In this document: in pieces, positions 7,176 through 57,154 of the stretch
How positions within the stretch are numbered: position 1 is the stretch's first letter
How the letters are laid out: the number at the start of each line of letters is the position of its first letter
Assembly (NCBI GenBank): GCA_964016885.1
Contig: OZ024752.1
Span: forward strand, 8,680,001 to 8,744,000
Direction: 5' to 3'
DNA from: Eledone cirrhosa
Taxonomy: Eukaryota
Length of the DNA stretch: 64,000 nt
Notes under the pieces: generated by a model
Databases searched by the model: none
Told to the model about the DNA's origin: nothing
What the model saw: only the letters and a program-made list of their open reading frames with translations
Translations under genes and position numbers: made by a program

Positions 7176-7862
7176 CCTCTATTTCTTTTACATGTATCTC
7201 CCTCCCTCTCTATATATCTCACTGTCTAACGTTCTCCCATGCCCTGTCATTCTCTCTCTCTCCTCCCCCTCTACATAAAACTACTTGTTTGTCTCCTCCT
7301 CCCCTTCTCTTCCTGTACCCCCGTCTCCCCCTTCTAATCTATGTTTAACCAATTCAACATTACACCAGCACAATATTCGGTCTAGGAGTGTTATCGTCCC
7401 AGGTATGTATCTTTGGTGTCTGACAGTCTGGATGTGTGAAGACGAGAGAGTGGTTCTGCTAGATAATAAGATGACTAACCGTCCCGTGAGCAGATAATAA
7501 TGTTGTTTGAGGCTGGCTGGCATTGGTCGGAGCAGACTCCTTTTCACAAAGCGTTCGTCCAGAGAACAGGAGAAAGTAAAGGAAGAGGAAAAGAAGATAT
7601 TGTTTCTACTTTGTTTTACCCATCACCTCCTCAGTTATGTTTCATGTCTTATTTTGTTTCCGGTTTCAAACACTTATCACTTTCACGTTACAAGAACCGA
7701 CATTGTTGTGTACATTTTTACGGTTGCCGTCAGCAATACAACAAAACTTCTCCTCAACCTGGAAACTCAGGAGAGAACCAACACCAAGAGAGTTTTCCTA
7801 CTGTTTCGACAGGAGGCCGCCAACTATCGTTTGACAACGGCTGCCTCACAGCACAATATCTA

Positions 7863-8499
7863 ATGTACCCATCTCGATTTGTAATACTGGTAGTGCTTAT
7901 TGCAATGACAGCTTGCAGTAGTATGGCCATGCCAGTCCAGGTTGTTGCAGCATGGTCAACCACAAGAAACTATTCAACGTACCGTAACAGCAACCCGTCC
8001 CACAGTATCTCGCAAAAGTTCACACCAGTCGAAGCATCATCACATTTATCACATCCGTTGAAATCCAATCGTTATGTGTCCGTATCAAATTCAATTTGGT
8101 CATCACTCTTAGATAAGGCTCTACCACGAAACTCATCATTTCAACACTGGTCAGTTGTTAATAAGGACGGCTTAAGGAGTAGCCAAGCGTTAGACGAGGG
8201 TAACATTCACCATATCAATTACAGGGACAAAAAACATTTATCGGAGGAAATAGATGAGGCCCTTGTTCGTAAACGTCGGTCATCTACGGAAGAAATATCA
8301 AATTCAAACATGGATGCGCTCGAACGTTTGTCACGTGTGTTTGGCATTCGGCGACTTCCGTCATCGGACAAAGTGTCACCACATTTGATCGCTCCTGAAT
8401 ATATGACACAACTTTATCAAAGTATTACAGACAGCGGAGGCCTGACAAAGGCTAATAGTCCTTACAATGCGGATATTATACGTAGCTTCCCAGACAGAG
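7863..8499 (+). CDS. ADMP: First coding exon of a BMP/TGF-beta family ligand (signal peptide + N-terminal prodomain), most similar to ADMP
   Basis: ATG at 7863 starts a hydrophobic signal peptide (MYPSRFVILVVLIAMTACSSMA). RKRR furin-type site at 8268-8279. Prodomain motif L..VFGI...APEYMTQLYQSITDSGGLTKANSPYNADIIRSFPDR, followed by a phase-1 donor AG|GTAAGT at 8499/8500, the usual intron position after 'RSF' in BMP genes. The ADMP assignment is from motif recall only. Confidence 0.75.
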
Positions 8500-8579
8500 G
8501 TAAGTGACAAACACTTTTGTAATTCACGAATCTACCGAAATTGTATTTATGTACTTTCATTACATTAAATGTATTTCGG

Positions 8580-10266: not shown

Positions 10267-10609
10267 CCTGTGTAAAATAATGGTTTCTTATATAGGCACG
10301 AGGCCAGCATATTTTGGGGGTGGGGTAAATCGATTTAATCGACCCCAGTACGTTACTGGTACTTTATTTTATCGACCCCGTAAGGATGAAAGGCAAAGTT
10401 AACCTCGGTGGGATTTGAACTCAGACCATAAAGGGCCACACGAGTGTAAAATATTAAAGTATTCAGTTGTAAGGAAATGTAATTTTGACATCTATTTGTA
10501 TTGTGTTGAGGGGAGGCTGGGGTTTATTGTGACCCGAGTGGTGGCTGGGATTACCTGGATCAAATAACCTGAGGATTTAAGGTACATAAACATATATATA
10601 CAGACAGGT

Positions 10610-12242: not shown

Positions 12243-12648
12243 TATAAGTATGTACATGTACATACATATATGTATACAGACGTACAGTAGTATGTATATA
12301 TATATACATACATGCACACGTATATATATGTACGTATGGATTCACCGAACATTTATTATAATGCTCGGTGTGTTTGTAAACACACATCCCGTATTAAGCC
12401 GTAGTGTCCAGCAACCATCGTTGGACACTACGGCTTAATACGGGATGTTTGTTTACAAACACACCGAGCATTATAATAAATGTTCGGTGAATCCATACGT
12501 ACATATATATATGTGTGCATGTATGTATATATATATACATATTACTCTACGTCTGTATACATATATGTATGTACGTGTACATACTTATATTTAAGTAACA
12601 GCCGTACTAAGAGTGGGAAATGAAATTTCGTTTCATTTTTTCCGTTTA
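12243..12648 (+). mobile_element. Hairpin insertion related to the 466-bp family, with a ~60-nt unpaired tail
   Basis: Inverted arms centred at ~12413. Tail ...GTACTAAGAGTGGGAAATGAAATTTCG matches the end of the 466-bp element. Confidence 0.7.
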
Positions 12649-12821: not shown

Positions 12822-13149
12822 TATATAGATATGTATATATATATGATAAATTGAAACAAAATGAAAACGAAATTTCATTTCTCACTCTTAGTATGGCACT
12901 TACTTAAATGTAAGTATGCATGTATACGTACATACATATATGTATACAGACGTACAGTAGCATGCACATATATATATATATATACATATATATATACATA
13001 TGCATACAGGTACACATACATATATGCACGTATCAGTTTAGCGGCGCTAACGTCGCTTTGTTCGTTTGTAAACAAACTGAACAGCCTGAATTTATGCCAT
13101 ACGGTGTTAAGGCAACCACGTCACCTTTTTGTTCAACACTGACACAGGA

Positions 13150-13192
13150 ACGATGTACTAGTTTCAAGCTTGTTAGCTATCATCAGCACCGT
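13150..13192 (-). ncRNA. Minimal type I hammerhead ribozyme, unit 1
   Basis: Minus strand ACGGTG CTGATGA TAGCTAACAAGCTT GAAA CTAG TA CATCGT: stem I, core, AGCT/AGCT stem II, palindromic stem III. Confidence 0.85.
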
Positions 13193-13615
13193 TTACCCAT
13201 CTGTCAGATAGTTGAACGTTCGAAAGTATATACTTTCCTTATGAAAATTAACGGCTGAGCAGCCTAATTTGCATATTGAGTGAGTTAAATCGGTCAGGCA
13301 TACCGAAAACGATAAATTGAAACAAAATGAAAACGAAATTTCATTTCTCACTCTTAGTATGGCACTTACTTAAATGTAAGTATGCATGTATACGTACATA
13401 CATATATGTATACAGACGTACAGTAGCATGCACATATATATATATATATACATATATATATACATATGCATACAGGTACACATACATATATGCACGTATC
13501 AGTTTAGCGGCGCTAACGTCGCTTTGTTCGTTTGTAAACAAACTGAACAGCCTGAATTTATGCCATACGGTGTTAAGGCAACCACGTCACCTTTTTGTTC
13601 AACACTGACACAGGA

Positions 13616-13658
13616 ACGATGTACTAGTTTCAAGCTTGTTAGCTATCATCAGCACCGT
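13616..13658 (-). ncRNA. Minimal hammerhead ribozyme, unit 2
   Basis: Identical to 13150-13192 (+466). Confidence 0.85.
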
Positions 13659-14081
13659 TTACCCATCTGTCAGATAGTTGAACGTTCGAAAGTATATACT
13701 TTCCTTATGAAAATTAACGGCTGAGCAGCCTAATTTGCATATTGAGTGAGTTAAATCGGTCAGGCATACCGAAAACGATAAATTGAAACAAAATGAAAAC
13801 GAAATTTCATTTCTCACTCTTAGTATGGCACTTACTTAAATGTAAGTATGCATGTATACGTACATACATATATGTATACAGACGTACAGTAGCATGCACA
13901 TATATATATATATATACATATATATATACATATGCATACAGGTACACATACATATATGCACGTATCAGTTTAGCGGCGCTAACGTCGCTTTGTTCGTTTG
14001 TAAACAAACTGAACAGCCTGAATTTATGCCATACGGTGTTAAGGCAACCACGTCACCTTTTTGTTCAACACTGACACAGGA

Positions 14082-14124
14082 ACGATGTACTAGTTTCAAG
14101 CTTGTTAGCTATCATCAGCACCGT
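14082..14124 (-). ncRNA. Minimal hammerhead ribozyme, unit 3
   Basis: Identical to 13150-13192 (+932). Confidence 0.85.
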
Positions 14125-14547
14125 TTACCCATCTGTCAGATAGTTGAACGTTCGAAAGTATATACTTTCCTTATGAAAATTAACGGCTGAGCAGCCTAAT
14201 TTGCATATTGAGTGAGTTAAATCGGTCAGGCATACCGAAAACGATAAATTGAAACAAAATGAAAACGAAATTTCATTTCTCACTCTTAGTATGGCACTTA
14301 CTTAAATGTAAGTATGCATGTATACGTACATACATATATGTATACAGACGTACAGTAGCATGCACATATATATATATATATACATATATATATACATATG
14401 CATACAGGTACACATACATATATGCACGTATCAGTTTAGCGGCGCTAACGTCGCTTTGTTCGTTTGTAAACAAACTGAACAGCCTGAATTTATGCCATAC
14501 GGTGTTAAGGCAACCACGTCACCTTTTTGTTCAACACTGACACAGGA

Positions 14548-14590
14548 ACGATGTACTAGTTTCAAGCTTGTTAGCTATCATCAGCACCGT
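14548..14590 (-). ncRNA. Minimal hammerhead ribozyme, unit 4
   Basis: Identical to 13150-13192 (+1398). Confidence 0.85.
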
Positions 14591-15026
14591 TTACCCATCT
14601 GTCAGATAGTTGAACGTTCGAAAGTATATACTTTCCTTATGAAAATTAACGGCTGCGTATGGCATAAATTCAGGCTGTTCAGTTTGTTTACAAACGAACA
14701 AAGCGACGTTAGCGCCGCTAAACGTGCATATATGTATGTGTACCTGTATGCATATGTATATATATATGTATATATATATATATATGTGCATGCTACTGTA
14801 CGTCTGTATACATATATGTATGTACGTATACATGCATACTTACATTTAAGTAAGTGCCATACTAAGAGTGAGAAATGAAATTTCGTTTTCATTTTGTTTC
14901 AATTTATCGTTTTCGGTATGCCTGACCGATTTAACTCACTCAATATGCAAATTAGGCTGCTCAGCCGTTAATTTTCATAAGGAAAGTATATACTTTCGAA
15001 CGTTCAACTATCTGACAGATGGGTAA

Positions 15027-15069
15027 ACGGTGCTGATGATAGCTAACAAGCTTAAAACTAGTACATCGT
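15027..15069 (+). ncRNA. Hammerhead in the inverted unit with a core mutation (GAAA to AAAA)
   Basis: ACGGTG CTGATGA TAGCTAACAAGCTT AAAA CTAG TA CATCGT. Confidence 0.7.
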
Positions 15070-15440
15070 TCCTGTGTCAGTGTTGAACAAAAAGGTGACG
15101 TGGTTGCCTTAACACCGTATGGCATAAATTCAGGCTGTTCAGTTTGTTTACAAACGAACAAAGCGACGTTAGCGCCGCTAAACTGATACGTGCATATATG
15201 TATGTGTACCTGTATGCATATGTATATATATATGTATATATATATATATATGTGCATGCTACTGTACGTCTGTATACATATATGTATGTACGTATACATG
15301 CATACTTACATTTATATATATATGTATATATATATATCTATATCTATATCTATATGTATATATATATATATATATATACATATATATATACATGTATATG
15401 TATATATATACATATATATATGTATATATATATATTTATA

Positions 15441-15599
<159 letters not shown>

Positions 15600-17572
15600 A
15601 TATATAAATGTATATATATATATGTAAAAGTTCTATTTAAATTGTTGGGATATAACAAGCAAATATTTTTATAACTCATATAAAGCACTCAACAAATAAT
15701 TGGAGTAAAAATACGATATTAACAAATGGAAACTATATTTATAAAACCATATTTATTTCATTATACATATTTCAAGGACACCAAGTTAAATTATGGTGTG
15801 CTTTCATCAGATAAAATATAATATAGAGCAGTTTTATAAATAAATATTGACATACCCTTAAAGAATGCAACCATTACTGTTGGAAGCTCCCGGATAGTGG
15901 GGTTATAACTTTATTTATACTATTATGTAAATTAGTATTGGATATTTTAAAATAAGCCGGTGGGTTACGGAGAAATAGAAAGAGAGAGAGAGAGAGAGAA
16001 GGACAAGAGAGAGAAAAAAGAAAAAAGAAAAAAGAAAAAAGAAAAAAGAAAAGAAAAAAGAGAGAGAAAGGAGAAAGATAAGAGAGCGAAAACTCTAAGT
16101 GATAGGTTGTTGAGTTATCTTAACATTTGAGATGAAGTGAAAGAGTAAATAAATATTTATTTTTTATGGATGAATAGAGAAATGTAAATAATCTTGAATG
16201 GAAGATACATATATAATATGAGAATTTTAACCATTGTTTAAATATGATTAAATGTTTAGTTTATCATTTAAATTATTGAGATCTATACATTAAAAATTGA
16301 AATCTATATATTAAGAGATCTATATATTATTATTAAGACTATATATTATTAAAAAATCTATATATTATTAGAAGAATATCTTCATATATATATACACGCA
16401 GGCACAGATATACATACATATAAACATATATATACGTATAAATACATATACATATATATCTACGTACATAATATATACATACAAAGTATAAAGGATTTTT
16501 TAATTTAAGATATATGAATTTTCATAAACTTATAGATTTTTCGTAGAAAATCTTATAAAATCAGAGAAAATCATTTCTATGTAATATCAAAGCAGCGTGA
16601 AGGAAATTACGTTATTTAGTTATATAAATGTTACAATTGTTAAGATATTACAGGAAATTTTATGTTATACACACCTTATGTTATTATACACATTTTTTTA
16701 TATATATATAAGTTTTATATCTAATAAAACTACCTGTTATGTAGTTATGACTGTTATTATATAGGTTTATTAATCACGAACCCTAAGATAATCCTTATAA
16801 ACAAGTGTAATCGAATTGTATGCATATACATATATATACATAATTCCCACATATATACACATAGACGTACCTCCACATATAGGTAGATATGCATCACCCA
16901 TATATATATACACATACATATACACACTTAAATATATGTACATGCATATAAATACATATATATATATATACACACATATAGAAAGAGATAGATAGATATA
17001 TAAATACAGTACATAGTAAAATTGAAGTACATAAAATAAAATAAAATAAAATAAAATAAAATAAAATAAAATAAAATAAAATAAAATAAAATAAAATAAA
17101 ATAAAATAAAATAAAATAAAATATAATAAAATAAAATAAAATAAAATAAAAAATAAAAAGAATAAAAAAGAATTATATTACGATTTGGAAATATAACTTT
17201 AAATCAATACAACTTTAAATCAATACAATTTTAAAAATATTATAGAATATTTAAATCAATATAACTTTAAATCAATACAATTTTAAAAATATTATAGAAT
17301 ATTTCAAGTTATAATTTTAAAATAATAATATGTTTAATAAATTTAGTATAAAAATGTTCTTAATTTTATATCCATAAGAGAAAGAAAGAGAAAACTTTCG
17401 AAAATAGGAGAAATTATCAAATAATATTTTCCTCTTTTAAGAGCTTTCAGTATGTTTCTCTAGAAGAGTTTTTTATATTTATTTATATTTAGGAAGAAAA
17501 GTTTTTTTACTTGAGAGTTTAAACAGTCAAAATATGTATATATATATGTATATATATGTATATATATATATG

Positions 17573-17635: not shown

Positions 17636-18174
<539 letters not shown>

Positions 18175-18513: not shown

Positions 18514-18967
18514 GTATATGTATATGTATATATATATAAAGGATAACAAAATATCGTTATACGTCATCCAGTTAGAGGTTGTGAATACTTATTATTATGG
18601 ATAGTTTTAGCGTATGGTGTTGTTTGACTCAACAAGAGGTTTACGTAGATGAGGAGTTTATGATTTCACTTGTATTCCTATGTAAGTTTATCTTGCAGTA
18701 ATAAAATTGAAAAAGTGGAGAATAACATGGTCAACAGTACAAAAAAGGGGATTTATTTACAGTCTGACAATTGTTTCACTGATTAAGTTGTCTAAAAATT
18801 GCTGAACACTAGCAGCAGTGCCTCTCAATTTTATATACGATGTTAACTCTGTAGGGTTAACAATTGTTAGAGTGCAAATAAACCCCCTTTTTTGTACTGT
18901 TGACCATGTTATTCTCCACTTTTTCAATTATATATGTATATATATATATATATGTATATGTATATGC

Positions 18968-19584: not shown

Positions 19585-19785
19585 TTATTTAAACCTGTAA
19601 AGCAATATTTATTATTAGTACAGATGTTTTGCATAAACTTTTAATCTATACTAATAATATAAATATGTTGTATTTCTGCTCCGTATTATACTTGATATTT
19701 TACATTGAGCTACTTTTCTTACTGGTAATCGGCTAACATATAATATTACCTTATCTTATTTATATTCTTATATATAAATATAATT

Positions 19786-19828
<43 letters not shown>

Positions 19829-20073
19829 GTAGATAAATCTACCAAGAGTTTACGGTAGTGTCCAATCCGTATGAAGAACTCAATGTATTCCGGATATCAT
19901 GGAAAGAAGAGATGTAATGAAAAATCACTTTCGGTGAAAGATAAACGGTATACAGAGTCAAGATAAAATATTAAACAAATAATGAATAAAACAATGAAAC
20001 AATTCCTTATATTAAACAACTTTTTTTGTTTAATATAAGGAATTGTTTCATTGTTTTATTCATTATTTGTTTA

Positions 20074-20080
<7 letters not shown>
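19829..20080 (-). mobile_element. Extremely truncated copy of the large PLE (3' tail plus a short inverted arm)
   Basis: 19829-20018 is the reverse complement of ~53430-53613. The inverted arm ends at the same ...TTAATATTTTA(TA)n boundary as the big palindrome. Confidence 0.85.
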
Positions 20081-20148
<68 letters not shown>

Positions 20149-20773
20149 TTCATCGAATCGAATCCTCTTTAAGTTTTGGTCCTTGTATTTATAATTACAA
20201 ATATATATATATATATATTGAGTATATGTTGGCTGTTTACCGACACCTCAGTATGCAGATTGGAGCACTCGACGAAGTACGCAGGTTGGTTTGTTTACTC
20301 CGGAGTAATGTAAAATAATTAAGTCAAATATGTAAAATTTGGCTTCGTTTATTATAAATTATAAACATACTGCTATATATATTTCATTGGCTGTGACCAA
20401 TGATGGCTGTCACCGAAATATATATAGCAGTATGTCTATAATTTATAATAAACGAAGCCAAATTTTACATATTTGACTTAATTATATTATATATATCATT
20501 GAATATTTACCCCAGAAACTGTTGAGTGCTTTGAATCAGTTATAAACATTTATATTTGTTGAATTACCAACAAATTGAATATCCCTTCTGCTTATATATC
20601 TATATATATATATATATAGATATATATATGTATATATAGTTATTCCGGCTTGAATCGGAGGTAACCACAGTAAGTAAGGTACTCAATACATAGCAGAGTA
20701 TAAAAGTAAAGTTTTAATATAGATGAGATTCTACAGGACTAGAACTGTTTCATTCTTTAAAAATCATCAGGAA

Positions 20774-23616: not shown

Positions 23617-24045
23617 CACCAGTGGATTGGCAGTATTGGTAGAGGGTCGGACGCCATGCTTTGATGTATAGAGTTACGGTCCTTGCCATTCTGAGTTCAA
23701 ATCCCGCCGAGGATAACTTTGCCTTTCATCCTTACAGGGTCGATAAAATAAAGTACCAGTAATGTACTGGGTATTTGCTGGTCTTGTGCCAAACGTAGAA
23801 ACAATTATTAAATTAGACGTCGATGGCGATGGATAAGGGCGATTGATTGGCAGTATCGGTAGAGGGTCGGACGCCATGCTTTGCAGCATAGAGTTACGGC
23901 GCTTTACGTTCTGAGTTTTAAATCCCGCTGAGTTTAACTTTGCCTTTCATCCTTACGGGGTCGATAAAATAACGTACCAGTAATTCACTGGTGTAATTTG
24001 CTGGCCTTGTGCTAAAAGTAGAAACAATTATTAAGTTAGACGTGG
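23617..24045 (+). mobile_element. Two tandem tRNA-derived Nin/Deu-domain-like SINEs (further copies ~10290-10440, 25045-25185, 26920-27110, 34125-34315, 35627-35770, 38585-38705)
   Basis: GAGTTCAAATCCCGCCGAGG..AACTTTGCCTTTCATCCTTACGGGGTCGATAAAATAAAGTACCAGT. Confidence 0.7.
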
Positions 24046-24291: not shown

Positions 24292-24345
<54 letters not shown>

Positions 24346-24718
24346 GAAGGAGTTGTGGTAAGGAACCAGATGGACCATAACGCACCAGAGTACTCAATAC
24401 TTAGGGTAGTAGTGTGGGTAATAGGAAAATGTATGACCCCGACGGCAGAGCTCAGGCCGTTTCGACGGCTATTTCAGTCAAGAAATAGCCGTCTAAACGA
24501 TATATATCGATAGACTTTCGTCAAATCGGACCGAGGAAACAATGTTTCCATTGGTCTTTCCAATTGCTAGTACTATCTATCGGTCACAACTCCAGGTAGA
24601 AGGAGCAAGGTGAAATAAAGTGTCTTGCTCAAGGACATAACGTATCGCCCGGTCGAAGAATCGAACATCGAACTCACAACCTCATGATTGTGAATCCAAT
24701 TCTCAGCCACACGCCTTC

Positions 24719-24812: not shown

Positions 24813-25392
24813 TCTTGATAGTTCTTCCTCGCTCCGTCCTGAGTTTCCACCCACTATACACGCACATATATTATATACATACATACACACGCACACACAC
24901 ACAAACATATATATATATATATATACATACACAGATAGACACACATACCAACACACCCATACACACACACTTGTATGTATGTATGGTCCTGTAACTCCTT
25001 ATAGAGACTTAGGGGTGCCGTATCAAGATACGGGGTACCTTGGGCATTACCAGTACTTGACTGCTACTTTTTTATCGAAGGGGTGAAAGGCAAAGTTGAC
25101 TTCGGCAGGATTTGAACTCAGAGAGCAAAAAGCCGCAACGAATAACATAAAACATTCTACCCGACGTTCTAGCGACCCTGCCAATATATATATATAAATA
25201 TACACACACACACGCACACACACACACACATATATATATACATACACAAACATATATAAATCATACACAAAACGCCACCACCAACAATTTTGCAAGAGAT
25301 GTCAACATGAATGGACCTATTATTTTTGTCTAAAGACATTTTTTCCAATTCCATCCCGCCCGTCCCCTTAATCTATTTTATTTCTCATTCTT

Positions 25393-25531: not shown

Positions 25532-25580
<49 letters not shown>

Positions 25581-25684
25581 AAAGTTTTATATAAAATTGT
25601 TGGGTTACAACAAGTAAATATTTTATAACTGATATAAAGCACTCGACAAGTTTTGGAGTAGATATACGATATTTGTTTAATATC

Positions 25685-25861
<177 letters not shown>

Positions 25862-26190: not shown

Positions 26191-27204
26191 CTGCCCGCCC
26201 AGCCAGTGGGATGGCGTTATCTTATGGCTAAAACAGCACGACCTGCTGTGACCAGCGACGCCGATTGGCGGTGATCAAGGTGATATATCTATATACATAT
26301 ATATATATATATATACACACAGACATATATATATATATATATATATATAGTAATAATAATAAATTTGAAAAGAGGGCTCGATAACCGAGGGAGCCAAATA
26401 GTAATAATAATAAATTTAAAGATCCCGTTAAGGGTGAAAGCAGCAATTCTTTGCTTAAATCTGTTCTTTTAATATATATATATATATAAAATCAAGGTCT
26501 ACCAAATAGAGTGAAAGTTTTAAAATAAATTTTAAAAAATTCGCAGTACTTACTATATGTATTTTTTACACGTAGGAATTCATACTTTATTGTTATATAT
26601 ATATATGTGTATGTTATATATATATATGTGTATGAAGGCGCAAAGCCTTTTATATACTCGCGTTGATTTTAAGAAACAGGAGAAAAATATACTGAATACT
26701 ATAGTAGAATGGGGTAGAATATGTATTATTTAGACGGACATAACAGTCTGTTACCCGTGAATTTTTCTGACATGTGACAGGTTCCTCAAGAAATAGCCAG
26801 GAAAGGCACACACGTGAAGGGAGCTCTAGTATAACGGCTTTTAAACTCTGTTTCATTATTTCCTTGAACCCTCGACACAACTTTATTATGCGGACATTTG
26901 CCATCCCCCAACTATTGTTTTACCGTTTGAAGGGAAAGGGGAAGTCGATTAAATCGATCCCAGTACATTACTGCAACTTTATTTTATCGACTCCGTAAGG
27001 ATGAGTGCCAAAGCTAATCTGGTGGGATTTGAACTCAGTATGTAATGAGCCAGGACAAACGCCAGAAAACATTTTACCCATTGCTGTAATGTTTCTGCCA
27101 ATCCCTCGCCCTTCTCCTAATAGTAGTTTCTTATTTAGGCCCAAGAACAACAATTTGGGTAGGAGAAAGTTGATTAAATCGACCCCAGTATATATATATA
27201 TAGA

Positions 27205-31530: not shown

Positions 31531-31589
<59 letters not shown>

Positions 31590-31748
31590 GGAGGTGAGTT
31601 TTATTGTAGTACAATAAAGCAATGCAGATATCGGATAAGAAGCACTCTACAGTTTGTAGGACTGGAGTATACATAATATATAAGAATATGTTGATTTAAA
31701 ACTGCACTATCCACAAGTGTTTTTTAACCTTCATATCTTGTCTTCCTG

Positions 31749-31815
31749 TTTTATCTGATGAAAACACAAATATTATTGCATGATGATATTTGTTTTTGAA
31801 ATGCGCATAATAAAA
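31749..31815 (+). ncRNA. Type I hammerhead ribozyme (family B, copy 2)
   Basis: Same motif as 17981-18047. Confidence 0.8.
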
Positions 31816-32219
31816 TACATGGAACTCTTTTAACCATCTTTTGTTCTTATATATATATATATATAATAAAAAATTGAACAGGGACAGAACAGAGAGGCAT
31901 ATGACCCTACCCACTATCTGAAGCTGAGCGCCAGGGGTTTGCACTTCATACCCAGCACATCCGCCTGCGACGAGTTCCGAACACGTGCTGAGGTTGAACG
32001 GTTCTTACATCACCTAAGACTACACACATTCTTCCACACACACGCACACACACACACACACACACATACATTGACACCCACACACTGACACATACACACG
32101 CACACACACAGAGAGTGACGCACACACACATATATTAGTAAAAGTAGAGGAACGACCGCGTCCTCGGGCAGTTTCAACTACATATAAATAAATAAATATA
32201 TATATATATACATATATGT

Positions 32220-32339: not shown

Positions 32340-32484
32340 TATATATAACGCGAGGAATTTGCTATTAAACAGACTTCACAATATATACAAAATACGTGTG
32401 TATATATATATGTGTGTGTGTATATATATGTATATATACATATATATACATATGCATACATACATCTGCATATATATATATATA

Positions 32485-32675
32485 GGAACGAGTAGGACCC
32501 CGACGGCTGAGCTCAAGCCGTTTCGACGGCGAATTCTGCGTCCAGAATTAGCCGTCGAAACGGCTTGAGCTCAGCCGTCGGGGCCCTACTCTTTCCTATT
32601 AACCACTCTACTACCCTAAGTATTGAGTACTTTGGTGCGTTATGGTCCACCTGGTTCCTTACCACATTTCCTTCG

Positions 32676-32676
<1 letters not shown>
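32485..32676 (+). mobile_element. Hairpin-plus-tail element, family H (copies 2649-2736, 24343-24500, 41075-41269, 42518-42705, 57153-57208)
   Basis: Arms contain the 3' half of an HHR (GAAA CGGC..GCCG TC GGGG). ~80-nt tail with GTATTGAGTACTTT ending CCTTCGT(TA)n. Confidence 0.8.
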
Positions 32677-32730
<54 letters not shown>

Positions 32731-33224: not shown

Positions 33225-33298
<74 letters not shown>

Positions 33299-33499
33299 AG
33301 TTTATGTTGGTTGTATACCAACACCTCAGTATGCAGGCTGGAGCACTCGACGAAGTGCGCAGGTTGGTTTGGTTACTCCGGAGTATGACTCCAGTTCCCC
33401 AGTGAATTAACAACCCAGCAAGGAACTGGGCATATCAGAGTATTGACAATATCATACACCTAAACAACATATGTACTTGTCTATACCATACTAATTCAA

Positions 33500-33554
33500 A
33501 CTGCCTGAAGAGGTCACAGCCAAAGATGGCTGTCACTGAAATATATATAGTAGT
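33500..33554 (+). ncRNA. Type I hammerhead ribozyme (family D; element ~33294-33600, relative at 20218-20485)
   Basis: ACTGC CTGAAGA GGTCACAGCCA-AAGA-TGGCTGTCACT GAAA TATATA TA GTAGT. Confidence 0.75.
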
Positions 33555-33603
33555 AATAAACGAAGCTAAATTTTAATCATTTGACTTTTATATAACTTTA
33601 TTT

Positions 33604-33697
<94 letters not shown>

Positions 33698-34461
33698 ATT
33701 AGGAAGTGAACAACACAAAATATAACTACTCCATTACCAAAGCTTTCTGGATCCCAGACAATATTAATATACGCCTCAATCGGTCATCATATATATATAT
33801 ATACATATATATATACACAGTTCAAGAGTAACCAATCTTAAAGAGAGAGATGGAGATAGGAGAGGAGATAGGAGAGGAGAGATTGGTGAATTAGTTAGAA
33901 GCCAAAGCGTAAAGGCATGTGCACAATGTGCAATATGCAGTAGAAAGCAGCTTGGTGGCTGGGTTCATGCAGAAGTTAGGTGCGCAGAGCGGGAAATATT
34001 CATTAGTTAAGCATTATTTTCAACTGAACCAGATCAATAATGATATATAGTCATCTCATCCAGAAATATTATATGAAGTAGCGAAACAATTGTAAACGGA
34101 CATTATTATTATTAATATTATAAGGGCAGTGGATTGGCAGTATCGGTAGAGGGTCGGACGCCATGTTTTGACGCAAAGACTTACGGCCCTTTCCATTCTG
34201 AGTTCAAATCTCGCCGAGGTTGACTTTGCCTTTCATCCTTATGGGGTCGATAAAATAAAGTACCAGTAATACACTGGGTAATTGGTGGCCTTGTGCCAAA
34301 AGTAGAAACAATTATTATTAATATTATTATTATTATTCTCTACATTCCTTACATCAAACTCAAATATGTTGACAATCTTTTAATAATGTCTTCCTTGTGA
34401 AGTTTGTGGTCTTGTTTTGCTTAACTAATGAATATATATATATATATATACATATATATAT

Positions 34462-40969: not shown

Positions 40970-41076
<107 letters not shown>

Positions 41077-41269: not shown

Positions 41270-41307
<38 letters not shown>

Positions 41308-42777: not shown

Positions 42778-42816
<39 letters not shown>

Positions 42817-42861
42817 TAAACAAATAATGAATAAACAATTCCTTATATTAAACAAAAAAAG

Positions 42862-43016
42862 TTCATTATTTAACGATCGTTTCTAGGGTATATATGTGTT
42901 ATAATTGGTATGCATATTCAACAGATCTATGTACAAAATTATACAAAATTATACAAATTATCAAGATTAAATATACATACCTAACACATATATACGCCGT
43001 CTTCAGAAATAATGAA
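42862..43016 (-). ncRNA. Mirror hammerhead ribozyme in the left palindrome arm
   Basis: Reverse complement of 53271-53425. Confidence 0.8.
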
Positions 43017-43836
43017 GTATATTTATTGATAATAACAACAATTCAAAATATCAGTTCAAAATTGACCAATGAAAACACAAAGGGTTAAAAGCAGTTCGGT
43101 GTGTGTATATACATGTAAAATCCTTACACATATTTTACAATAATGTGTGTATAATTTGTATGCGCATACTAAAAAGATGGATGCAAACACAAAATTTCAA
43201 GGTTAATATCTCTGTAAGCTTAATGCGCTGATAAGATGCGCATTGATACTTATGGAGTCAAGCATATAAATATATTTTTTCATACTCACACATATCAGTA
43301 TAATCACACATACATGCGCGTATATGCATAAATATACACATAACCACGAACATACAAACACACACACTCCCCCACTCACATTTATATATGTGGATATAAA
43401 ATCATAAGCACATAGAAATTAAGTCACTCACATAAAACACTGGCACACACATTTCAAGATCAAGATACAGAAATTAGGTGGGAGGGGGGGGAGGGGTCAG
43501 TATTCAATTGTCTGAGCAGACTGCCTAATATAAATGTATCTATAAATTAAGAAAAATAAAAAAATAAAAACAATAAAATACAATAAATATAATATAATGT
43601 ACATACACATACAGATATATATACACATACATACATGTACGCGCACATAGAGATATTTACGTATACACACATACACACATACATATACAGTCATACACAC
43701 ACATACACTTACACGAACATACACATACACATATAAAAAGATATATATATACACAACACACACGCGCAACACATACACACATACACATATATATAAAAAA
43801 TAGATAATAAAGATATATATCCATATATATATATAT

Positions 43837-43897
<61 letters not shown>

Positions 43898-43986
43898 TAT
43901 ACATATACATACACATACATCTAAATATACATACACATACATACACACATACATGTACATACATGTACATACATATACGCACATCG

Positions 43987-44034
<48 letters not shown>

Positions 44035-44354
44035 TCACATAGACATAAAGATACATACACACACAACTTACATACACACGTATATATATATATATATAGA
44101 TGTACCTTCATACATAGAATTAGATATATAATCATACATACATATGCACCTACTTATACTCATATAAATAAATACATACGCTTCCATATATGTGTATATA
44201 CATAAAAAATAATACAACCTCACCAAACTCAGACATACAAATGAAAATAATAATAAAAAGGCATATGTATATACATACACACACGCATTAATAGAGATAT
44301 ATATATATACACACATACATACACATATATATATACATACACACACACATATAT

Positions 44355-44425
<71 letters not shown>

Positions 44426-44429
44426 TAGA

Positions 44430-44468
<39 letters not shown>

Positions 44469-44908
44469 ATATATATCCACACACTCATACCACCATAAAT
44501 ACACATACAAACACCCACATGTATATATATATATATATATCTATATACACACACGTATACACATATATATATATATACATACATATATATATATACACAC
44601 ACATAAAAAACAGACATGCACATATATATATATATATATATATTTCATTACTCTTATATATACACATATTATATATACATACACAACCTCACTTATACAC
44701 ATATACACATAAGTTATATTACAATAATAATAAAGAATAATATACATATATATATATACATATACATATATATATATATATATATATACATACATACATA
44801 CACATACATACATACACATAAATATATACATACATAAATACACACATACGAATAAAGACATATATTCACACATAGACACCTATATATATATATATATATA
44901 TATATATC

Positions 44909-44946
<38 letters not shown>

Positions 44947-46098
44947 CACATACACATACACACACACACACAGACACACATACACACTCACATATATATA
45001 TATATATATGTGTATGTGAGTGTGCGCACATACACATATATACACACACACATACAAACACACACAAACACATACATATGCATACGTGCACACACACACA
45101 CATATATCACATAGATACGAAGATAAACATATAAATAGAGAGACATACATATATATACACAACACACATACACATACATACATACACGCATATACATATA
45201 CATACATATATACACATATATATATATTCCTATATATACAAGCATATACATACATACACATATATACACATACATACACATATACATACAACACATTCAC
45301 ATACACATACATATATAATACATATATATACATATATATACATACATATGTATGTACAATCATATATACACACACAATCTTACATTCATATTTGCATGCT
45401 CATATATGTATTTTTATATTTAGATATAAATACCCAAACCTATATAGACACCTACCTACATATATATTCATACATAGACGCTTACAAATACAGATGATAA
45501 TAGTATGGGGGAAAGGGGGGGTTTGGAGAAGGGGATCAAAGTAAATATATGTTTCAAGAAACATATAATATTTTCCGTATCTTAATTCAATGTATGTTCT
45601 TACATATTTTCAGTGCTAGGAAATACGAAATCTATGCATCTCAAAATAAATAAGTATACCATTAATCATATGTTAACTAAACCAAAGATAGTCAACATAT
45701 TGATTTCTAAGGTGTAAATTAGTTAGGTTTATAATATTTGAAGCAGAATTTTGAAGTCAAACAGTAGTAGATTATTAATTACATTATAACTAAATTAAAG
45801 TTAATAACGTTATGGTATCAATATTAGGAGATGAATTTAGTAATAGGGAAAAGAAACCCAAATAAAAATAAAATAAAGTATTACATCGGTAGTAGCATAT
45901 AAATTATATGTTAACTAAATTAAAAATTATATATTTATTTCAATAGTATACGTTAATTAGTATATGTTAATTAGGTATACAATACATAAAGCAGATATTG
46001 TATTTCATCAATAGCATAATATAATTATATGCAAATAGAAATCAAAATTAATACGCCTACATATACATATACATACACATACACATATACATACATAT

Positions 46099-46132
<34 letters not shown>

Positions 46133-46673
46133 ATATATACATATATACACACATATACATACATACAGATACACATACACAACACACACATATACATATA
46201 CATATACATATACATATCTTTTTCAAAAAATTGCACAGAATATATTAACTAGGTATATATCCAAAACACATCCCATTCTATGATTACATGACATTCTGCA
46301 ATTCGTCTGTATAAGGATACTAATTTTAAGCAAATTAAAATTAAAGTTTTAGGTTGATTAAAACTAAAACCAAATAATAAATATATTTCCAAAATGTATA
46401 TTAATTAGGTCTATAATACTAAAAATTCTTTCTCCGTCATTGGATACATGATATTATTTTGTTATATTTTATCTGTAAAAGAATTATAATAAAAGGTTTA
46501 AATAAATTAAAATTAATCTATAAATTAAATTACTAAGTATATATTAGTAATATTTAAAGGTTTTTCACAATTTATGATTACATAATATTTTCTCATCTGT
46601 AATAAAATATTAATTAAATTAAATTTATAGGTTAACTAACATTTAAATTAAATTAATTTCTAGAATAATGTTA

Positions 46674-48176
46674 TTAATTAGGTTTATAATATTTAAATGT
46701 TTTTTTTAGTTTATGATTACACGATATAATTAATTCCTGTCGTTTATTTAATAAGATATCCTTAGACTTCATTATTTCAAATAGTTCTTGGGAACATAAT
46801 CTACATTCCTTTCTATTATTTTGATAAGGGGTGGCTCTTTTGAGCACACTCCAGGTCAAATCATATTTTATATTCTTATTTTTATAACTATTGATTTTTT
46901 CTGCTAGAGATGTTGTATTAGCCAGTGCGGCATTTTTAAAACTATGTTTGTGGGTATTAAACCTTGTCTTAAAATTGTTAGAGGTAGCTCCTATATATGA
47001 GCAAATAGAATCTTTAGTTTTAACATTACATTTATAGACTATGTTGTTAACAAGACAATTCCCTTTTAATGGGCAGTTTGTTTTGTTTCTACAGTTACAT
47101 CCTTTCGTTAATTCTGTATTTGAGGAGATATTATTGTTAATTTGATGTACTGGTGGTATACTTATGGTTTTCTTACATTTATATGCATTATATGCACTTA
47201 TATTTTGTTTTATGTTATTTGTTGTAGAGTATGAGAATTTAACTGTAGACCTATTTAAGATTTGATGGTATTTGTGGTTTGGCGGGAAGTTTTTCTCAAG
47301 GATATAAAAAAATTTTTTAGCAATATTATCCTTAACTTGTAAATTAAAAGGAGCATTATACCAAGTAACTCGTCTATTACGGTTTCTATGTTGTTTATTA
47401 TTTTTATTATTTTTATAGGTTGTATCATGATTTTTACTAGGAGGATTAATGTTAATGATCTCACCACAACTATTTTTAGTTATATTTGTAGATTTAGGTG
47501 TTTTATCTTTTTTATTAGGAGTTTTATTATTAATATTTATTATAGTTGTATGATGAGTAGTTTTTTGAGGGTTACTATACTTTATATTAGAAGATTTAGT
47601 ATTTTGGGGTATATTGTGGGTGGCATTTAGGTGTGTACTTTTCATTTGGTGTTTGTTGGTAATATTATGCTGTATGCTTTCAGTATTTTTAGTAGAAGGT
47701 ATATACTCTAATCTATTTTTGTGGCCACTTCTATCTAGAGCTTCATTATAAAAGGTCGCATTTTTATCAAATACATCTTGGTTAGAAGAAAGGTTAGAAA
47801 TTCTAAGTGATATATTATATGCAAGGTTTTTAAGGATAGATTTAGGGTGATTAGACTGTGAGTGTATGTAATGTAAGTTTTGGTTAGGTTTATGGTAAGG
47901 TTGGTATATACCCGTAGCTAAATCTAAAGTTATATCTAGGAAATTTACTACTTTACTTGTTTTTTCAAAAGTAATATTAAGATTATAATAGTCTTTAAGG
48001 AAAGTTCTAATATGTTTTTTGTTTTTTTCGATTTCTGAAAGGCTAAGGTTGTTAGAAAGAAGAAGACAGTCATCACGATATAAACCACCTTTGAGGTGGG
48101 GAAAAGAGGCATTTATGTTGAAAAGGAGAAAGAGGCCCACAAGATCAGTAATTTGGGCGGAATCGCTTGAACCCAT
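46674..48176 (-). CDS. Mirror copy of the truncated PLE RT/GIY-YIG ORF
   Basis: Identical 500-aa translation on the minus strand, symmetric about 48182.5. Confidence 0.92.
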   Translation of the reverse strand: MGSSDSAQITDLVGLFLLFNINASFPHLKGGLYRDDCLLLSNNLSLSEIEKNKKHIRTFLKDYYNLNITFEKTSKVVNFLDITLDLATGIYQPYHKPNQNLHYIHSQSNHPKSILKNLAYNISLRISNLSSNQDVFDKNATFYNEALDRSGHKNRLEYIPSTKNTESIQHNITNKHQMKSTHLNATHNIPQNTKSSNIKYSNPQKTTHHTTIININNKTPNKKDKTPKSTNITKNSCGEIININPPSKNHDTTYKNNKNNKQHRNRNRRVTWYNAPFNLQVKDNIAKKFFYILEKNFPPNHKYHQILNRSTVKFSYSTTNNIKQNISAYNAYKCKKTISIPPVHQINNNISSNTELTKGCNCRNKTNCPLKGNCLVNNIVYKCNVKTKDSICSYIGATSNNFKTRFNTHKHSFKNAALANTTSLAEKINSYKNKNIKYDLTWSVLKRATPYQNNRKECRLCSQELFEIMKSKDILLNKRQELIISCNHKLKKTFKYYKPN

Positions 48177-48188
48177 AGTTATATTACT

Positions 48189-49691
48189 ATGGGTTCAAGC
48201 GATTCCGCCCAAATTACTGATCTTGTGGGCCTCTTTCTCCTTTTCAACATAAATGCCTCTTTTCCCCACCTCAAAGGTGGTTTATATCGTGATGACTGTC
48301 TTCTTCTTTCTAACAACCTTAGCCTTTCAGAAATCGAAAAAAACAAAAAACATATTAGAACTTTCCTTAAAGACTATTATAATCTTAATATTACTTTTGA
48401 AAAAACAAGTAAAGTAGTAAATTTCCTAGATATAACTTTAGATTTAGCTACGGGTATATACCAACCTTACCATAAACCTAACCAAAACTTACATTACATA
48501 CACTCACAGTCTAATCACCCTAAATCTATCCTTAAAAACCTTGCATATAATATATCACTTAGAATTTCTAACCTTTCTTCTAACCAAGATGTATTTGATA
48601 AAAATGCGACCTTTTATAATGAAGCTCTAGATAGAAGTGGCCACAAAAATAGATTAGAGTATATACCTTCTACTAAAAATACTGAAAGCATACAGCATAA
48701 TATTACCAACAAACACCAAATGAAAAGTACACACCTAAATGCCACCCACAATATACCCCAAAATACTAAATCTTCTAATATAAAGTATAGTAACCCTCAA
48801 AAAACTACTCATCATACAACTATAATAAATATTAATAATAAAACTCCTAATAAAAAAGATAAAACACCTAAATCTACAAATATAACTAAAAATAGTTGTG
48901 GTGAGATCATTAACATTAATCCTCCTAGTAAAAATCATGATACAACCTATAAAAATAATAAAAATAATAAACAACATAGAAACCGTAATAGACGAGTTAC
49001 TTGGTATAATGCTCCTTTTAATTTACAAGTTAAGGATAATATTGCTAAAAAATTTTTTTATATCCTTGAGAAAAACTTCCCGCCAAACCACAAATACCAT
49101 CAAATCTTAAATAGGTCTACAGTTAAATTCTCATACTCTACAACAAATAACATAAAACAAAATATAAGTGCATATAATGCATATAAATGTAAGAAAACCA
49201 TAAGTATACCACCAGTACATCAAATTAACAATAATATCTCCTCAAATACAGAATTAACGAAAGGATGTAACTGTAGAAACAAAACAAACTGCCCATTAAA
49301 AGGGAATTGTCTTGTTAACAACATAGTCTATAAATGTAATGTTAAAACTAAAGATTCTATTTGCTCATATATAGGAGCTACCTCTAACAATTTTAAGACA
49401 AGGTTTAATACCCACAAACATAGTTTTAAAAATGCCGCACTGGCTAATACAACATCTCTAGCAGAAAAAATCAATAGTTATAAAAATAAGAATATAAAAT
49501 ATGATTTGACCTGGAGTGTGCTCAAAAGAGCCACCCCTTATCAAAATAATAGAAAGGAATGTAGATTATGTTCCCAAGAACTATTTGAAATAATGAAGTC
49601 TAAGGATATCTTATTAAATAAACGACAGGAATTAATTATATCGTGTAATCATAAACTAAAAAAAACATTTAAATATTATAAACCTAATTAA
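48189..49691 (+). CDS. PLE ORF, 5'-truncated: C-terminal RT, thumb, Cys-rich linker, GIY-YIG endonuclease
   Basis: Starts at the internal RT 'MGS' motif. Contains YRDD, FLDITL, CNCRNKTNCPLKGNC (Neptune-type Zn finger), IVY...YIG...R...H and CxxCxxE...LN..E. Confidence 0.92.
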   Translation: MGSSDSAQITDLVGLFLLFNINASFPHLKGGLYRDDCLLLSNNLSLSEIEKNKKHIRTFLKDYYNLNITFEKTSKVVNFLDITLDLATGIYQPYHKPNQNLHYIHSQSNHPKSILKNLAYNISLRISNLSSNQDVFDKNATFYNEALDRSGHKNRLEYIPSTKNTESIQHNITNKHQMKSTHLNATHNIPQNTKSSNIKYSNPQKTTHHTTIININNKTPNKKDKTPKSTNITKNSCGEIININPPSKNHDTTYKNNKNNKQHRNRNRRVTWYNAPFNLQVKDNIAKKFFYILEKNFPPNHKYHQILNRSTVKFSYSTTNNIKQNISAYNAYKCKKTISIPPVHQINNNISSNTELTKGCNCRNKTNCPLKGNCLVNNIVYKCNVKTKDSICSYIGATSNNFKTRFNTHKHSFKNAALANTTSLAEKINSYKNKNIKYDLTWSVLKRATPYQNNRKECRLCSQELFEIMKSKDILLNKRQELIISCNHKLKKTFKYYKPN

Positions 49692-50232
49692 TAACATTAT
49701 TCTAGAAATTAATTTAATTTAAATGTTAGTTAACCTATAAATTTAATTTAATTAATATTTTATTACAGATGAGAAAATATTATGTAATCATAAATTGTGA
49801 AAAACCTTTAAATATTACTAATATATACTTAGTAATTTAATTTATAGATTAATTTTAATTTATTTAAACCTTTTATTATAATTCTTTTACAGATAAAATA
49901 TAACAAAATAATATCATGTATCCAATGACGGAGAAAGAATTTTTAGTATTATAGACCTAATTAATATACATTTTGGAAATATATTTATTATTTGGTTTTA
50001 GTTTTAATCAACCTAAAACTTTAATTTTAATTTGCTTAAAATTAGTATCCTTATACAGACGAATTGCAGAATGTCATGTAATCATAGAATGGGATGTGTT
50101 TTGGATATATACCTAGTTAATATATTCTGTGCAATTTTTTGAAAAAGATATGTATATGTATATGTATATGTATATGTGTGTGTTGTGTATGTGTATCTGT
50201 ATGTATGTATATGTGTGTATATATGTATATAT

Positions 50233-50266
<34 letters not shown>

Positions 50267-51418
50267 ATATGTATGTATATGTGTATGTGTATGTATATGT
50301 ATATGTAGGCGTATTAATTTTGATTTCTATTTGCATATAATTATATTATGCTATTGATGAAATACAATATCTGCTTTATGTATTGTATACCTAATTAACA
50401 TATACTAATTAACGTATACTATTGAAATAAATATATAATTTTTAATTTAGTTAACATATAATTTATATGCTACTACCGATGTAATACTTTATTTTATTTT
50501 TATTTGGGTTTCTTTTCCCTATTACTAAATTCATCTCCTAATATTGATACCATAACGTTATTAACTTTAATTTAGTTATAATGTAATTAATAATCTACTA
50601 CTGTTTGACTTCAAAATTCTGCTTCAAATATTATAAACCTAACTAATTTACACCTTAGAAATCAATATGTTGACTATCTTTGGTTTAGTTAACATATGAT
50701 TAATGGTATACTTATTTATTTTGAGATGCATAGATTTCGTATTTCCTAGCACTGAAAATATGTAAGAACATACATTGAATTAAGATACGGAAAATATTAT
50801 ATGTTTCTTGAAACATATATTTACTTTGATCCCCTTCTCCAAACCCCCCCTTTCCCCCATACTATTATCATCTGTATTTGTAAGCGTCTATGTATGAATA
50901 TATATGTAGGTAGGTGTCTATATAGGTTTGGGTATTTATATCTAAATATAAAAATACATATATGAGCATGCAAATATGAATGTAAGATTGTGTGTGTATA
51001 TATGATTGTACATACATATGTATGTATATATATGTATATATATGTATTATATATGTATGTGTATGTGAATGTGTTGTATGTATATGTGTATGTATGTGTA
51101 TATATGTGTATGTATGTATATGCTTGTATATATAGGAATATATATATATGTGTATATATGTATGTATATGTATATGCGTGTATGTATGTATGTGTATGTG
51201 TGTTGTGTATATATATGTATGTCTCTCTATTTATATGTTTATCTTCGTATCTATGTGATATATGTGTGTGTGTGTGCACGTATGCATATGTATGTGTTTG
51301 TGTGTGTTTGTATGTGTGTGTGTATATATGTGTATGTGCGCACACTCACATACACATATATATATATATATATGTGAGTGTGTATGTGTGTCTGTGTGTG
51401 TGTGTGTATGTGTATGTG

Positions 51419-51456
<38 letters not shown>

Positions 51457-51835
51457 GATATATATATATATATATATATATATAGGTGTCTATGTGTGAA
51501 TATATGTCTTTATTCGTATGTGTGTATTTATGTATGTATATATTTATGTGTATGTATGTATGTGTATGTATGTATGTATATATATATATATATATATGTA
51601 TATGTATATATATATATGTATATTATTCTTTATTATTATTGTAATATAACTTATGTGTATATGTGTATAAGTGAGGTTGTGTATGTATATATAATATGTG
51701 TATATATAAGAGTAATGAAATATATATATATATATATATATGTGTATACGTGTGTGTATATAGATATATATATATATATATACATGTGGGTGTTTGTATG
51801 TGTATTTATGGTGGTATGAGTGTGTGGATATATAT

Positions 51836-51874
<39 letters not shown>

Positions 51875-51878
51875 TCTA

Positions 51879-51939
<61 letters not shown>

Positions 51940-52259
51940 ATATATGTGTGTGTGTATGTATATATATATGTGTATGTATGTGTGTATATATATATATCTC
52001 TATTAATGCGTGTGTGTATGTATATACATATGCCTTTTTATTATTATTTTCATTTGTATGTCTGAGTTTGGTGAGGTTGTATTATTTTTTATGTATATAC
52101 ACATATATGGAAGCGTATGTATTTATTTATATGAGTATAAGTAGGTGCATATGTATGTATGATTATATATCTAATTCTATGTATGAAGGTACATCTATAT
52201 ATATATATATATACGTGTGTATGTAAGTTGTGTGTGTATGTATCTTTATGTCTATGTGA

Positions 52260-52307
<48 letters not shown>

Positions 52308-52396
52308 CGATGTGCGTATATGTATGTACATGTATGTACATGTATGTGTGTATGTATGTGTATGTATATTTAGATGTATGTGTATGTATATGTATA

Positions 52397-52451
<55 letters not shown>

Positions 52452-53270
52452 ATATATATATATATGGATATATATCTTTATTATCTATTTTTTATATATA
52501 TGTGTATGTGTGTATGTGTTGCGCGTGTGTGTTGTGTATATATATATCTTTTTATATGTGTATGTGTATGTTCGTGTAAGTGTATGTGTGTGTATGACTG
52601 TATATGTATGTGTGTATGTGTGTATGCGTAAATATCTCTATGTGCGCGTACATGTATGTATGTGTATATATATCTGTATGTGTATGTACATTATATTATA
52701 TTTATTGTATTTTATTGTTTTTATTTTTTTATTTTTCTTAATTTATAGATACATTTATATTAGGCAGTCTGCTCAGACAATTGAATACTGACCCCTCCCC
52801 CCCTCCCACCTAATTTCTGTATCTTGATCTTGAAATGTGTGTGCCAGTGTTTTATGTGAGTGACTTAATTTCTATGTGCTTATGATTTTATATCCACATA
52901 TATAAATGTGAGTGGGGGAGTGTGTGTGTTTGTATGTTCGTGGTTATGTGTATATTTATGCATATACGCGCATGTATGTGTGATTATACTGATATGTGTG
53001 AGTATGAAAAAATATATTTATATGCTTGACTCCATAAGTATCAATGCGCATCTTATCAGCGCATTAAGCTTACAGAGATATTAACCTTGAAATTTTGTGT
53101 TTGCATCCATCTTTTTAGTATGCGCATACAAATTATACACACATTATTGTAAAATATGTGTAAGGATTTTACATGTATATACACACACCGAACTGCTTTT
53201 AACCCTTTGTGTTTTCATTGGTCAATTTTGAACTGATATTTTGAATTGTTGTTATTATCAATAAATATAC

Positions 53271-53425
53271 TTCATTATTTCTGAAGACGGCGTATATATG
53301 TGTTAGGTATGTATATTTAATCTTGATAATTTGTATAATTTTGTATAATTTTGTACATAGATCTGTTGAATATGCATACCAATTATAACACATATATACC
53401 CTAGAAACGATCGTTAAATAATGAA
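53271..53425 (+). ncRNA. Type I hammerhead ribozyme in the PLE 3' pLTR region (long stem II)
   Basis: Stem I TTCATTATTT/AAATAATGAA, core CTGAAGA, ~115-nt stem II region (GTATATATGTGTTA/TAACACATATATAC), GAAA, palindromic CGATCG, then TT. Confidence 0.8.
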
Positions 53426-53610
53426 CTTTTTTTGTTTAATATAAGGAATTGTTTATTCATTATTTGTTTAATATTTTATCTTGACTCTGTATACCGTTTA
53501 TCTTTCACCGAAAGTGGATTTTCATTACATCTCTTCTTTCCATGATATCCGGAATACATTGAGTTCTTCATACGGATTGGACACTACCGTAAACTCTTGG
53601 TAGATTTATC

Positions 53611-53701
<91 letters not shown>

Positions 53702-57109: not shown

Positions 57110-57154
<45 letters not shown>

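Follow-up and report, generated by a model that had tools for sequence, protein, structure and literature searches.

Penelope-like elements (PLEs) generally carry an inverted, 5'-truncated copy of themselves and, optionally, a tail of 30-40 bp at one end (Craig et al. 2021, PMC8557442; Arkhipova et al. 2013, PMC3846280). The origin of the inverted repeats is named there as an open problem (PMC8557442). The features of the Hydra clade are a CxCX5C linker, CxxC and CxH pairs around the E and N residues, (TA)n targeting and a hammerhead, together with a size below 3 kb that is typical rather than diagnostic; its table includes Hydra-1_Obim from Octopus bimaculoides, with four copies ending at one site, and for Penelope-13_HM it records an inverted copy truncated at the 5' side (PMC8557442). 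For the Poseidon PLE PAc of Anolis carolinensis, two reverse-transcription start sites were found in vitro to bracket the tail, and both target strands are cut and extended; the main text gives no account of how an inverted arm forms, and the second-strand steps are unvalidated (Frangieh et al. 2024, PMC11167929). For the Penelope elements of the rotifer Adineta vaga, junction palindromes have already been read as the outcome of self-priming, which the authors place on the antisense strand (PMC3846280).

We analysed a 64-kb window (the whole stretch of DNA, AT-rich and with abundant microsatellites, its composition giving the impression of an animal genome, probably that of an octopus) that holds two related insertions: a 251-bp element at 19829-20079, here the miniature, and a palindrome of about 10.8 kb at 42808-53613, here the giant. 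Their family, family H, resembles the Hydra clade in its C-terminal GIY-YIG domain, CxCX5C linker, canonical hammerhead and (TA)n target, and differs from most listed Hydra families (<3 kb) in that its truncated copy alone, from truncation point to 3' end, measures 5.4 kb (PMC8557442). Since its hammerhead sequence differs from the one listed for Hydra-1_Obim, it is not that family. The inverted 5'-truncated copy and the tail at one end only are those of PLEs, except that the tail is 134 nt long and not 30-40 bp (PMC8557442). With Poseidon PAc it shares a tail between fixed ends, an AT-rich target and a hammerhead upstream of the tail; PAc, however, is of a different clade, with start sites in an AC-rich stem-loop inside the start of the open reading frame (ORF) (PMC11167929), whereas no ORF start was found by eye in the family H tail. 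The Adineta vaga elements are alike in their head-to-head inverted copies, junction palindromes and one-sided tail, and Pen1 also in its long non-coding spacers before the 3' end, but they have a 31-bp tail, target-site duplications and direct pLTRs (PMC3846280). Non-LTR retrozymes, too, are short non-coding units tied to PLE ends; unlike the miniature, they are tandem hammerhead-bearing repeats (10.64898/2026.07.22.740005).

A miniature and a giant insertion with shared ends

The 3' portion of the giant, read from 53613 back to 53432, aligns with the miniature (19829-20019) at 94% over 191 columns (E 4e-81), and the two tails differ by 2 mismatches in 134 nt. Miniature and giant have the end of their short arm at one and the same place, 135 nt upstream of the 3' end, where a TAT passes into the flank; all four ends lie in (TA)n, and the flanks of the two are unrelated to each other. 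The arms of the miniature pair perfectly over 57 bp around a 6-nt loop, and its junction shows a 2-nt AA microhomology beyond which the loop extends the native sequence of the short arm (Table 1). The first-pass annotation, which had described an insertion of about 250 bp with the tail and short-arm end of the giant and an axis only some 60 nt in, is thus borne out. The palindromic part of the giant measures 10.67 kb by self-comparison, from about 42811 to 53476; its arms of about 5.3 kb are separated by one internal substitution and five gaps, and an ORF of about 500 codons is open in each arm, with no differences over 1503 nt. A 9-nt insertion is present in both arms of the miniature and absent from both arms of the giant; therefore the arms of each element come from its own template.

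Table 1. Positions of the insertions, hairpin families and loops in the window.
Feature	Position	Strand	Remark
(TA)n target, tail side of miniature	19769..19828	no strand	
Miniature one-sided tail	19829..19962	(-)	134 nt, element's 3' end; 132/134 identical to 53480-53613
Miniature tail motif GAGTTCT	19875..19881	(-)	one mismatch to GAGYRCT; mapped from the giant's tail
Miniature long (tailed) arm	19963..20019	(-)	57 bp
Miniature loop	20020..20025	(+)	6 nt; continuous with short arm; matches giant native sequence ~53427-53432
Miniature short arm	20026..20082	(+)	final 3 nt (TAT) common to (TA)n flank
(TA)n target, short-arm side of miniature	20083..20145	no strand	
Giant short (tail-less) arm, inverted copy	42808..48179	(-)	end site identical to that of the miniature's short arm
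Mirror copy of hammerhead motif in giant	42862..43016	(-)	
Giant loop	48180..48185	(-)	6 nt; inferred from homology, short-arm reading N-I-T-M-G
Giant long arm	48186..53479	(+)	
Giant 5'-truncated PLE ORF	48189..49691	(+)	reverse transcriptase from MGS to YRDD, thumb, CxCX5C linker, GIY-YIG endonuclease
Microsatellite-rich 3' non-coding region of giant	49692..53270	(+)	about 3.6 kb
Hammerhead motif of giant, type I	53271..53425	(+)	predicted cut after 53415
Giant one-sided tail	53480..53613	(+)	134 nt, then (TA)n; motif at 53561-53567
Family A, TA-flanked copies	2646-2733, 24343-24499, 32482-32678, 41072-41271, 42519-42709, 57150-57214		six copies
Family D	17734-18173		double fold-back at axis
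Family D	31587-31852		tail and inverted arm only
Tandem array	12845-15314		3.9 identical 466-bp units, hammerhead motif in each
Diverged single hairpin of the array's family	12247-12646		
Loops on short arm	19829, giant, 2646, 24343, 41072, 42519, 17734, 21525, 12247, 25570		
Loops on long arm	32482, 20219		weakly long: 2781

The ORF of the giant, the one copy in the window to have an ORF, begins at alignment column 334 of 971, i.e. within the reverse transcriptase (RT) core and some 300 residues late relative to its homologues, and because it starts inside the RT the giant is truncated and non-autonomous. Read with the short arm, the loop of the giant gives N-I-T-M-G and, with the long arm, Y-I-T-M-G, where homologues have D-[VI]-[TASP]-M-G; the short-arm reading appears the closer, a polarity that turns on one residue. 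Judged by their sequences, miniature and giant are two independent 5'-truncated insertions of one PLE family. Two other assignments of the miniature were rejected. It is not a MITE or a DNA transposon with terminal inverted repeats, as its inverted arm lies 134 nt inside one end and its centre is a 6-nt loop; nor is it a non-LTR retrozyme, being a single hairpin in which neither a hammerhead nor a tandem unit is found (19829-20082).

A sensitive search of the 64-kb window gave no third insertion of family H. For two copies alone the shared boundary is not decisive, the chance that they share a short-arm end being p=0.09 with 11 TA-phase micro-sites available. The earlier proposal that the outer ends are fixed while the inversion point varies thus holds for the miniature against the giant and is repeated, as to the fixed end, by other families (below), but it had two copies behind it, and in two of those families, A and D, the axis is nearly constant. 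The proposed tie between the small hairpins and an autonomous PLE likewise stands in part: the miniature belongs to the family of the giant, but the giant, with a reading frame that opens only within the RT core, is not autonomous, and the other small hairpins of the window have no significant similarity to family H, sharing its architecture and not its sequence.

The same layout was met outside the window. A scan of genome contigs returned 15 loci (L001-L015) with relatives of the giant's protein in bacterial assemblies (GTDB), several of them from one assembly; these Hydra-like PLEs with hammerheads and (TA)n are apparently contamination from animal hosts, and one L001 hammerhead matches that tabulated for Hydra-2_aMil (PMC8557442). 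An inverted arm with a one-sided tail is also present in L001 and L005. This bears on the reading of the giant as a fold-back artefact of reads or assembly, its match to the miniature incidental, which the near identity of its arms would suit. We consider it extremely improbable: the symmetry breaks off at the very base at which that of the miniature does, with (TA)n beyond it, the flanks are unrelated, and further families in the window repeat the layout. So do the independent assemblies of L001 and L005, and this speaks against an artefact in the present assembly. The first-pass annotation had argued in the same direction, and rightly so, as one would not expect a read or assembly fold-back to halt at a site that is defined by the element and recurs at another locus.

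Protein and hammerhead motif of family H

The giant's ORF product has 232 relatives among 8000 scored candidates; the protein search returned no close full-length relative, the best identities being about 31-49%, and a local Pfam scan of the ORF gave no family. In an alignment with 14 homologues, YRDD and the VY..YIG, R, E and N columns are conserved. One ORF therefore holds an RT together with a GIY-YIG endonuclease at its C terminus, as in EN+ PLEs. Further features point to the Hydra clade: the linker C366-N-C368-X5-C374 precedes the endonuclease; there is no CCHH, and C464xxC467 and C492xH494 flank E470 and N483; a hammerhead motif, a predicted ribozyme by descriptor scan and fold, lies near the 3' end; and insertion is into (TA)n. 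There is no CxxC between VY and YIG, with a K where many homologues carry a second H. The RWK and DKT motifs of the Hydra clade belong to the N-terminal half, a part that the truncated giant has lost; W[KRH] and DK[ST] occur there in 13 of the 14 homologues, P0001 being without the region. On these characters we class family H as Penelope-like with Hydra-clade features.

The hammerhead motif consists of a 10-bp stem I, CUGAAGA, a long stem II (a region of about 116 nt), GAAA and a palindromic stem III; Rfam at its gathering threshold reported nothing in the 64-kb window, 53271-53425 included. Downstream of the predicted cut, 53456-53465 exactly repeats the 5' strand of stem I (53271-53280) and could pair with the 3' strand of stem I in its place, a possible on/off fold. 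A short stem-loop (53600-53613) closes the tail directly before (TA)n. The 3.6-kb non-coding region between ORF and hammerhead is possibly captured host DNA.

Beyond these features, the window contains hammerhead-like motifs outside the mapped families (41588-41690 and 42405-42454); a fragment of another retrotransposon at 63000-63803 (zf-RVT match in Pfam, E 4.7e-07); and a multi-copy SINE-like family (23620-24043, 34120-34317, 35636-35769, 38613-38704, 10323-10437, 26938-27051 and 25046-25185; one copy tandem) that is not of the tailed-hairpin type. An open frame at 7479-8507 has a signal-peptide-like stretch and an RKRR site, and a Pfam scan of it gave no match. We take it to resemble a TGF-beta/BMP prodomain exon.

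Tailed hairpins of the window, their loops and a tail motif

Seven further families (A-G) in the window have the tailed-hairpin layout, with tails of about 59-133 nt across the window families; five have at least two short arms, and C and E have one each. Short-arm ends coincide in 2 of 2 copies of family H, 5 of 6 of A (the exception being the copy at 24343) and 2 of 2 of D; in B three of four lie at one site with the fourth 5 nt off, and in F and G the two copies of each agree within a few nt. Under the same null as above the combined chance for the four tighter families is ~1.5e-5, a post hoc figure; a product of 1e-7, which takes in F and G, is too generous, as these two agree only within a few nt. 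Most short-arm ends sit on a TAT/ATA match to the target. The array at 12845-15314 is followed by an inverted arm of 659 nt, with a 60-nt tail at the other end; it appears retrozyme-like while sharing the tailed layout, and would fit the retrozyme description better than the miniature does.

The axis varies in families H, B, F and G and is almost fixed in A and D, the arms of both D copies extending to an identical upstream point. In family A both ends and the axis are nearly fixed while the junction letters differ, a pattern that suggests a defined short RNA. The axes also bear on whether the ends alone were set at insertion and the short axis arose later, when a once long palindrome lost its centre by deletion with its outer ends kept. 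Long perfect palindromes are unstable and prone to central loss; together with the 2-nt microhomology at the miniature junction and the visible decay of some window hairpins, this speaks for such a deletion. We nevertheless hold it to be quite unlikely, since the 5.3-kb arms of the giant are almost intact, the fold points of five A copies, with differing junction letters, are spread over no more than about 10 nt, a sign of a fixed RNA end, the axis of the miniature lies 8 nt from the predicted hammerhead cut, and deletion does not obviously explain the bias in loop polarity.

That bias is marginal. Of 12 hairpins in which native sequence could be called, 10 have a loop that continues the short arm (p=0.039; p=0.18 at 10 of 14). 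Four of the ten belong to one family, and four more junctions (21252, 40115, 40392 and the 12845 array) were not callable. A short-arm loop fits the short arm as the strand that folded, since the unpaired loop belongs to that strand. Were a single cDNA primed at the tail to fold back, with second-strand synthesis halting at a fixed site and being joined to the target, the loop should lie on the long arm. This would be the simplest variant of target-primed reverse transcription and would account for the long-arm loops at 32482 and 20219, but the opposite polarity of the miniature, the giant and the 10 of 12 hairpins makes it very unlikely.

The tails share a short motif, GAGYRCT, which recurs in those of unrelated families. 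It is exact in 4 of 8 window tails (shuffle mean 0.06); if one mismatch is allowed, 7 of 8 tails have it, that of family H (GAGTTCT) among them (shuffle mean 1.5), no shuffle of 2000 reaching either count. As the motif was defined on these eight tails and three tails of the scanned loci, the counts lack independence. A prospective test used 13 other hammerheads from the scanned loci, of which three have an exact motif downstream and none upstream (shuffle mean 0.17; 2 of 5000 shuffles reach three); of the ten misses, six meet (TA)n 45-96 nt from the cut. The window has 18 distinct exact sites, 14 of them 30-65 nt before (TA)n against a background of 18%, most of the 14 being copies of the defining families. 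The motif might, as a guess, be a binding site for the element's protein. Searching with it also brought up two more tail families, one at 15620-15790, 20495-20592 and 25577-25690, the last a tail with an 11-bp hairpin, and another at 41518-41700 and 18540-18620.

Proposed priming and folding in the formation of tailed palindromes

In LINE-1 twin priming, two target-derived primers on one RNA yield a 5' inversion joined by microhomology, the internal priming site being variable and the inverted part not duplicated. Three copies in our material (31587-31852, 33297-33605 and L001:10633-10732) consist of a tail and an inverted arm with almost no long arm; in each the long strand stops near the internal site, and theirs is the topology of twin priming. 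Unlike in LINE-1, the internal site here is fixed, and the inverted part is usually duplicated. These copies, the loop polarity and the two-site initiation of Poseidon lead us to a model of twin priming from two sites that are fixed on the RNA, with a snap-back of the internal cDNA; it is our best model and one to which we give somewhat better than even credence; coincident short-arm ends and the private arm variants also count for it. The long-arm loops at 32482, 20219 and weakly 2781, the A copy at 24343 and the long arm of L005, which exceeds the short arm by 771 nt, count against it.

In detail, the GIY-YIG nuclease would nick both strands of (TA)n; one target 3'-OH would prime reverse transcription at the distal site (53613) and the other at the fixed internal site 135 nt upstream, aided by the 3-nt TAT match. 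The internal cDNA would extend until drop-off or the 5' end of the RNA, whereupon its 3' end would fold back through 1-2 nt of microhomology and copy itself; the folded cDNA would then be joined to the distal cDNA, which would supply the tail. With priming at two fixed sites, the ends would be set in cis and the axis would be the stop point of the internal cDNA. The final sequence is alike for a snap-back and for cross-priming of two cDNAs that end together.

Where the internal cDNA stops may also say something of its template. As the miniature stops 8 nt short of the predicted cut, this template may be the 198-nt 3' cleavage product, and the L001 inverted arm reaches the predicted cut within 0-4 nt; the two stops together suggest cleaved RNA as template. 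Against this reading counts the finding for Poseidon that hammerhead cleavage is not needed in vitro and that no RNA-seq reads end at the cut (PMC11167929).

The tail-plus-arm copies also bear on a route through a free hairpin, in which synthesis of a minus strand, either cDNA or antisense RNA, would begin at the 3' end; the strand would prime itself and be copied in full, after which the endonuclease would cut one arm at a fixed site and leave the tail as an integration overhang. This route, too, puts the loop on the short arm; for rotifer PLEs an antisense template that primes itself has been proposed (PMC3846280), the tail has been ascribed to EN-mediated resolution (PMC8557442), and a motif in the tail that is palindromic would be apt for binding by a dimer. 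Copies lacking a long arm are, however, not readily produced in this way, direct measurement in a related clade gave two start sites for the RT (PMC11167929), and most short-arm ends lie on the TAT/ATA target match, as priming predicts; we regard the route as unlikely.

Miniature and giant are dead-on-arrival insertions of a Hydra-type PLE into (TA)n; the feature is real and is largely explained by the known PLE signature, the architecture itself being published. Beyond the publications consulted go the longer tails (that of family H exceeds the published length three- to fourfold), a loop that goes with the short arm in 10 of the 12 callable hairpins, and the recurrent GAGYRCT. In the literature the pairing of 'Penelope-like' with 'twin-priming' was not found, while 'Penelope' and 'twin priming' do co-occur; at the level of titles and the openings of abstracts nothing on PLE loop polarity or a tail motif came up, and subscription journals, Repbase notes and supplements may hold such accounts.

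Whether ends are fixed, on which arm the loop lies, which copies are tail-only and where the candidate cis motif occurs can all be counted, and they provide read-outs for the unsolved integration step. Hairpins that are PLE remnants might be annotated wrongly as MITEs or SINEs, and the ends of such giant palindromes deserve a check before the whole is dismissed as an assembly error. As a tentative generalization, which we hold with less than even confidence, we propose for Hydra-type PLEs that twin priming at two cis-defined RNA sites may be obligatory, with a conserved GAGYRCT box 32-56 nt from the 3' end positioning the protein and the internal cDNA snapping back as its own second strand. 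If so, every insertion would start out as a tailed palindrome, and in the many hairpins with TA flanks this genome would directly record the integration intermediate.
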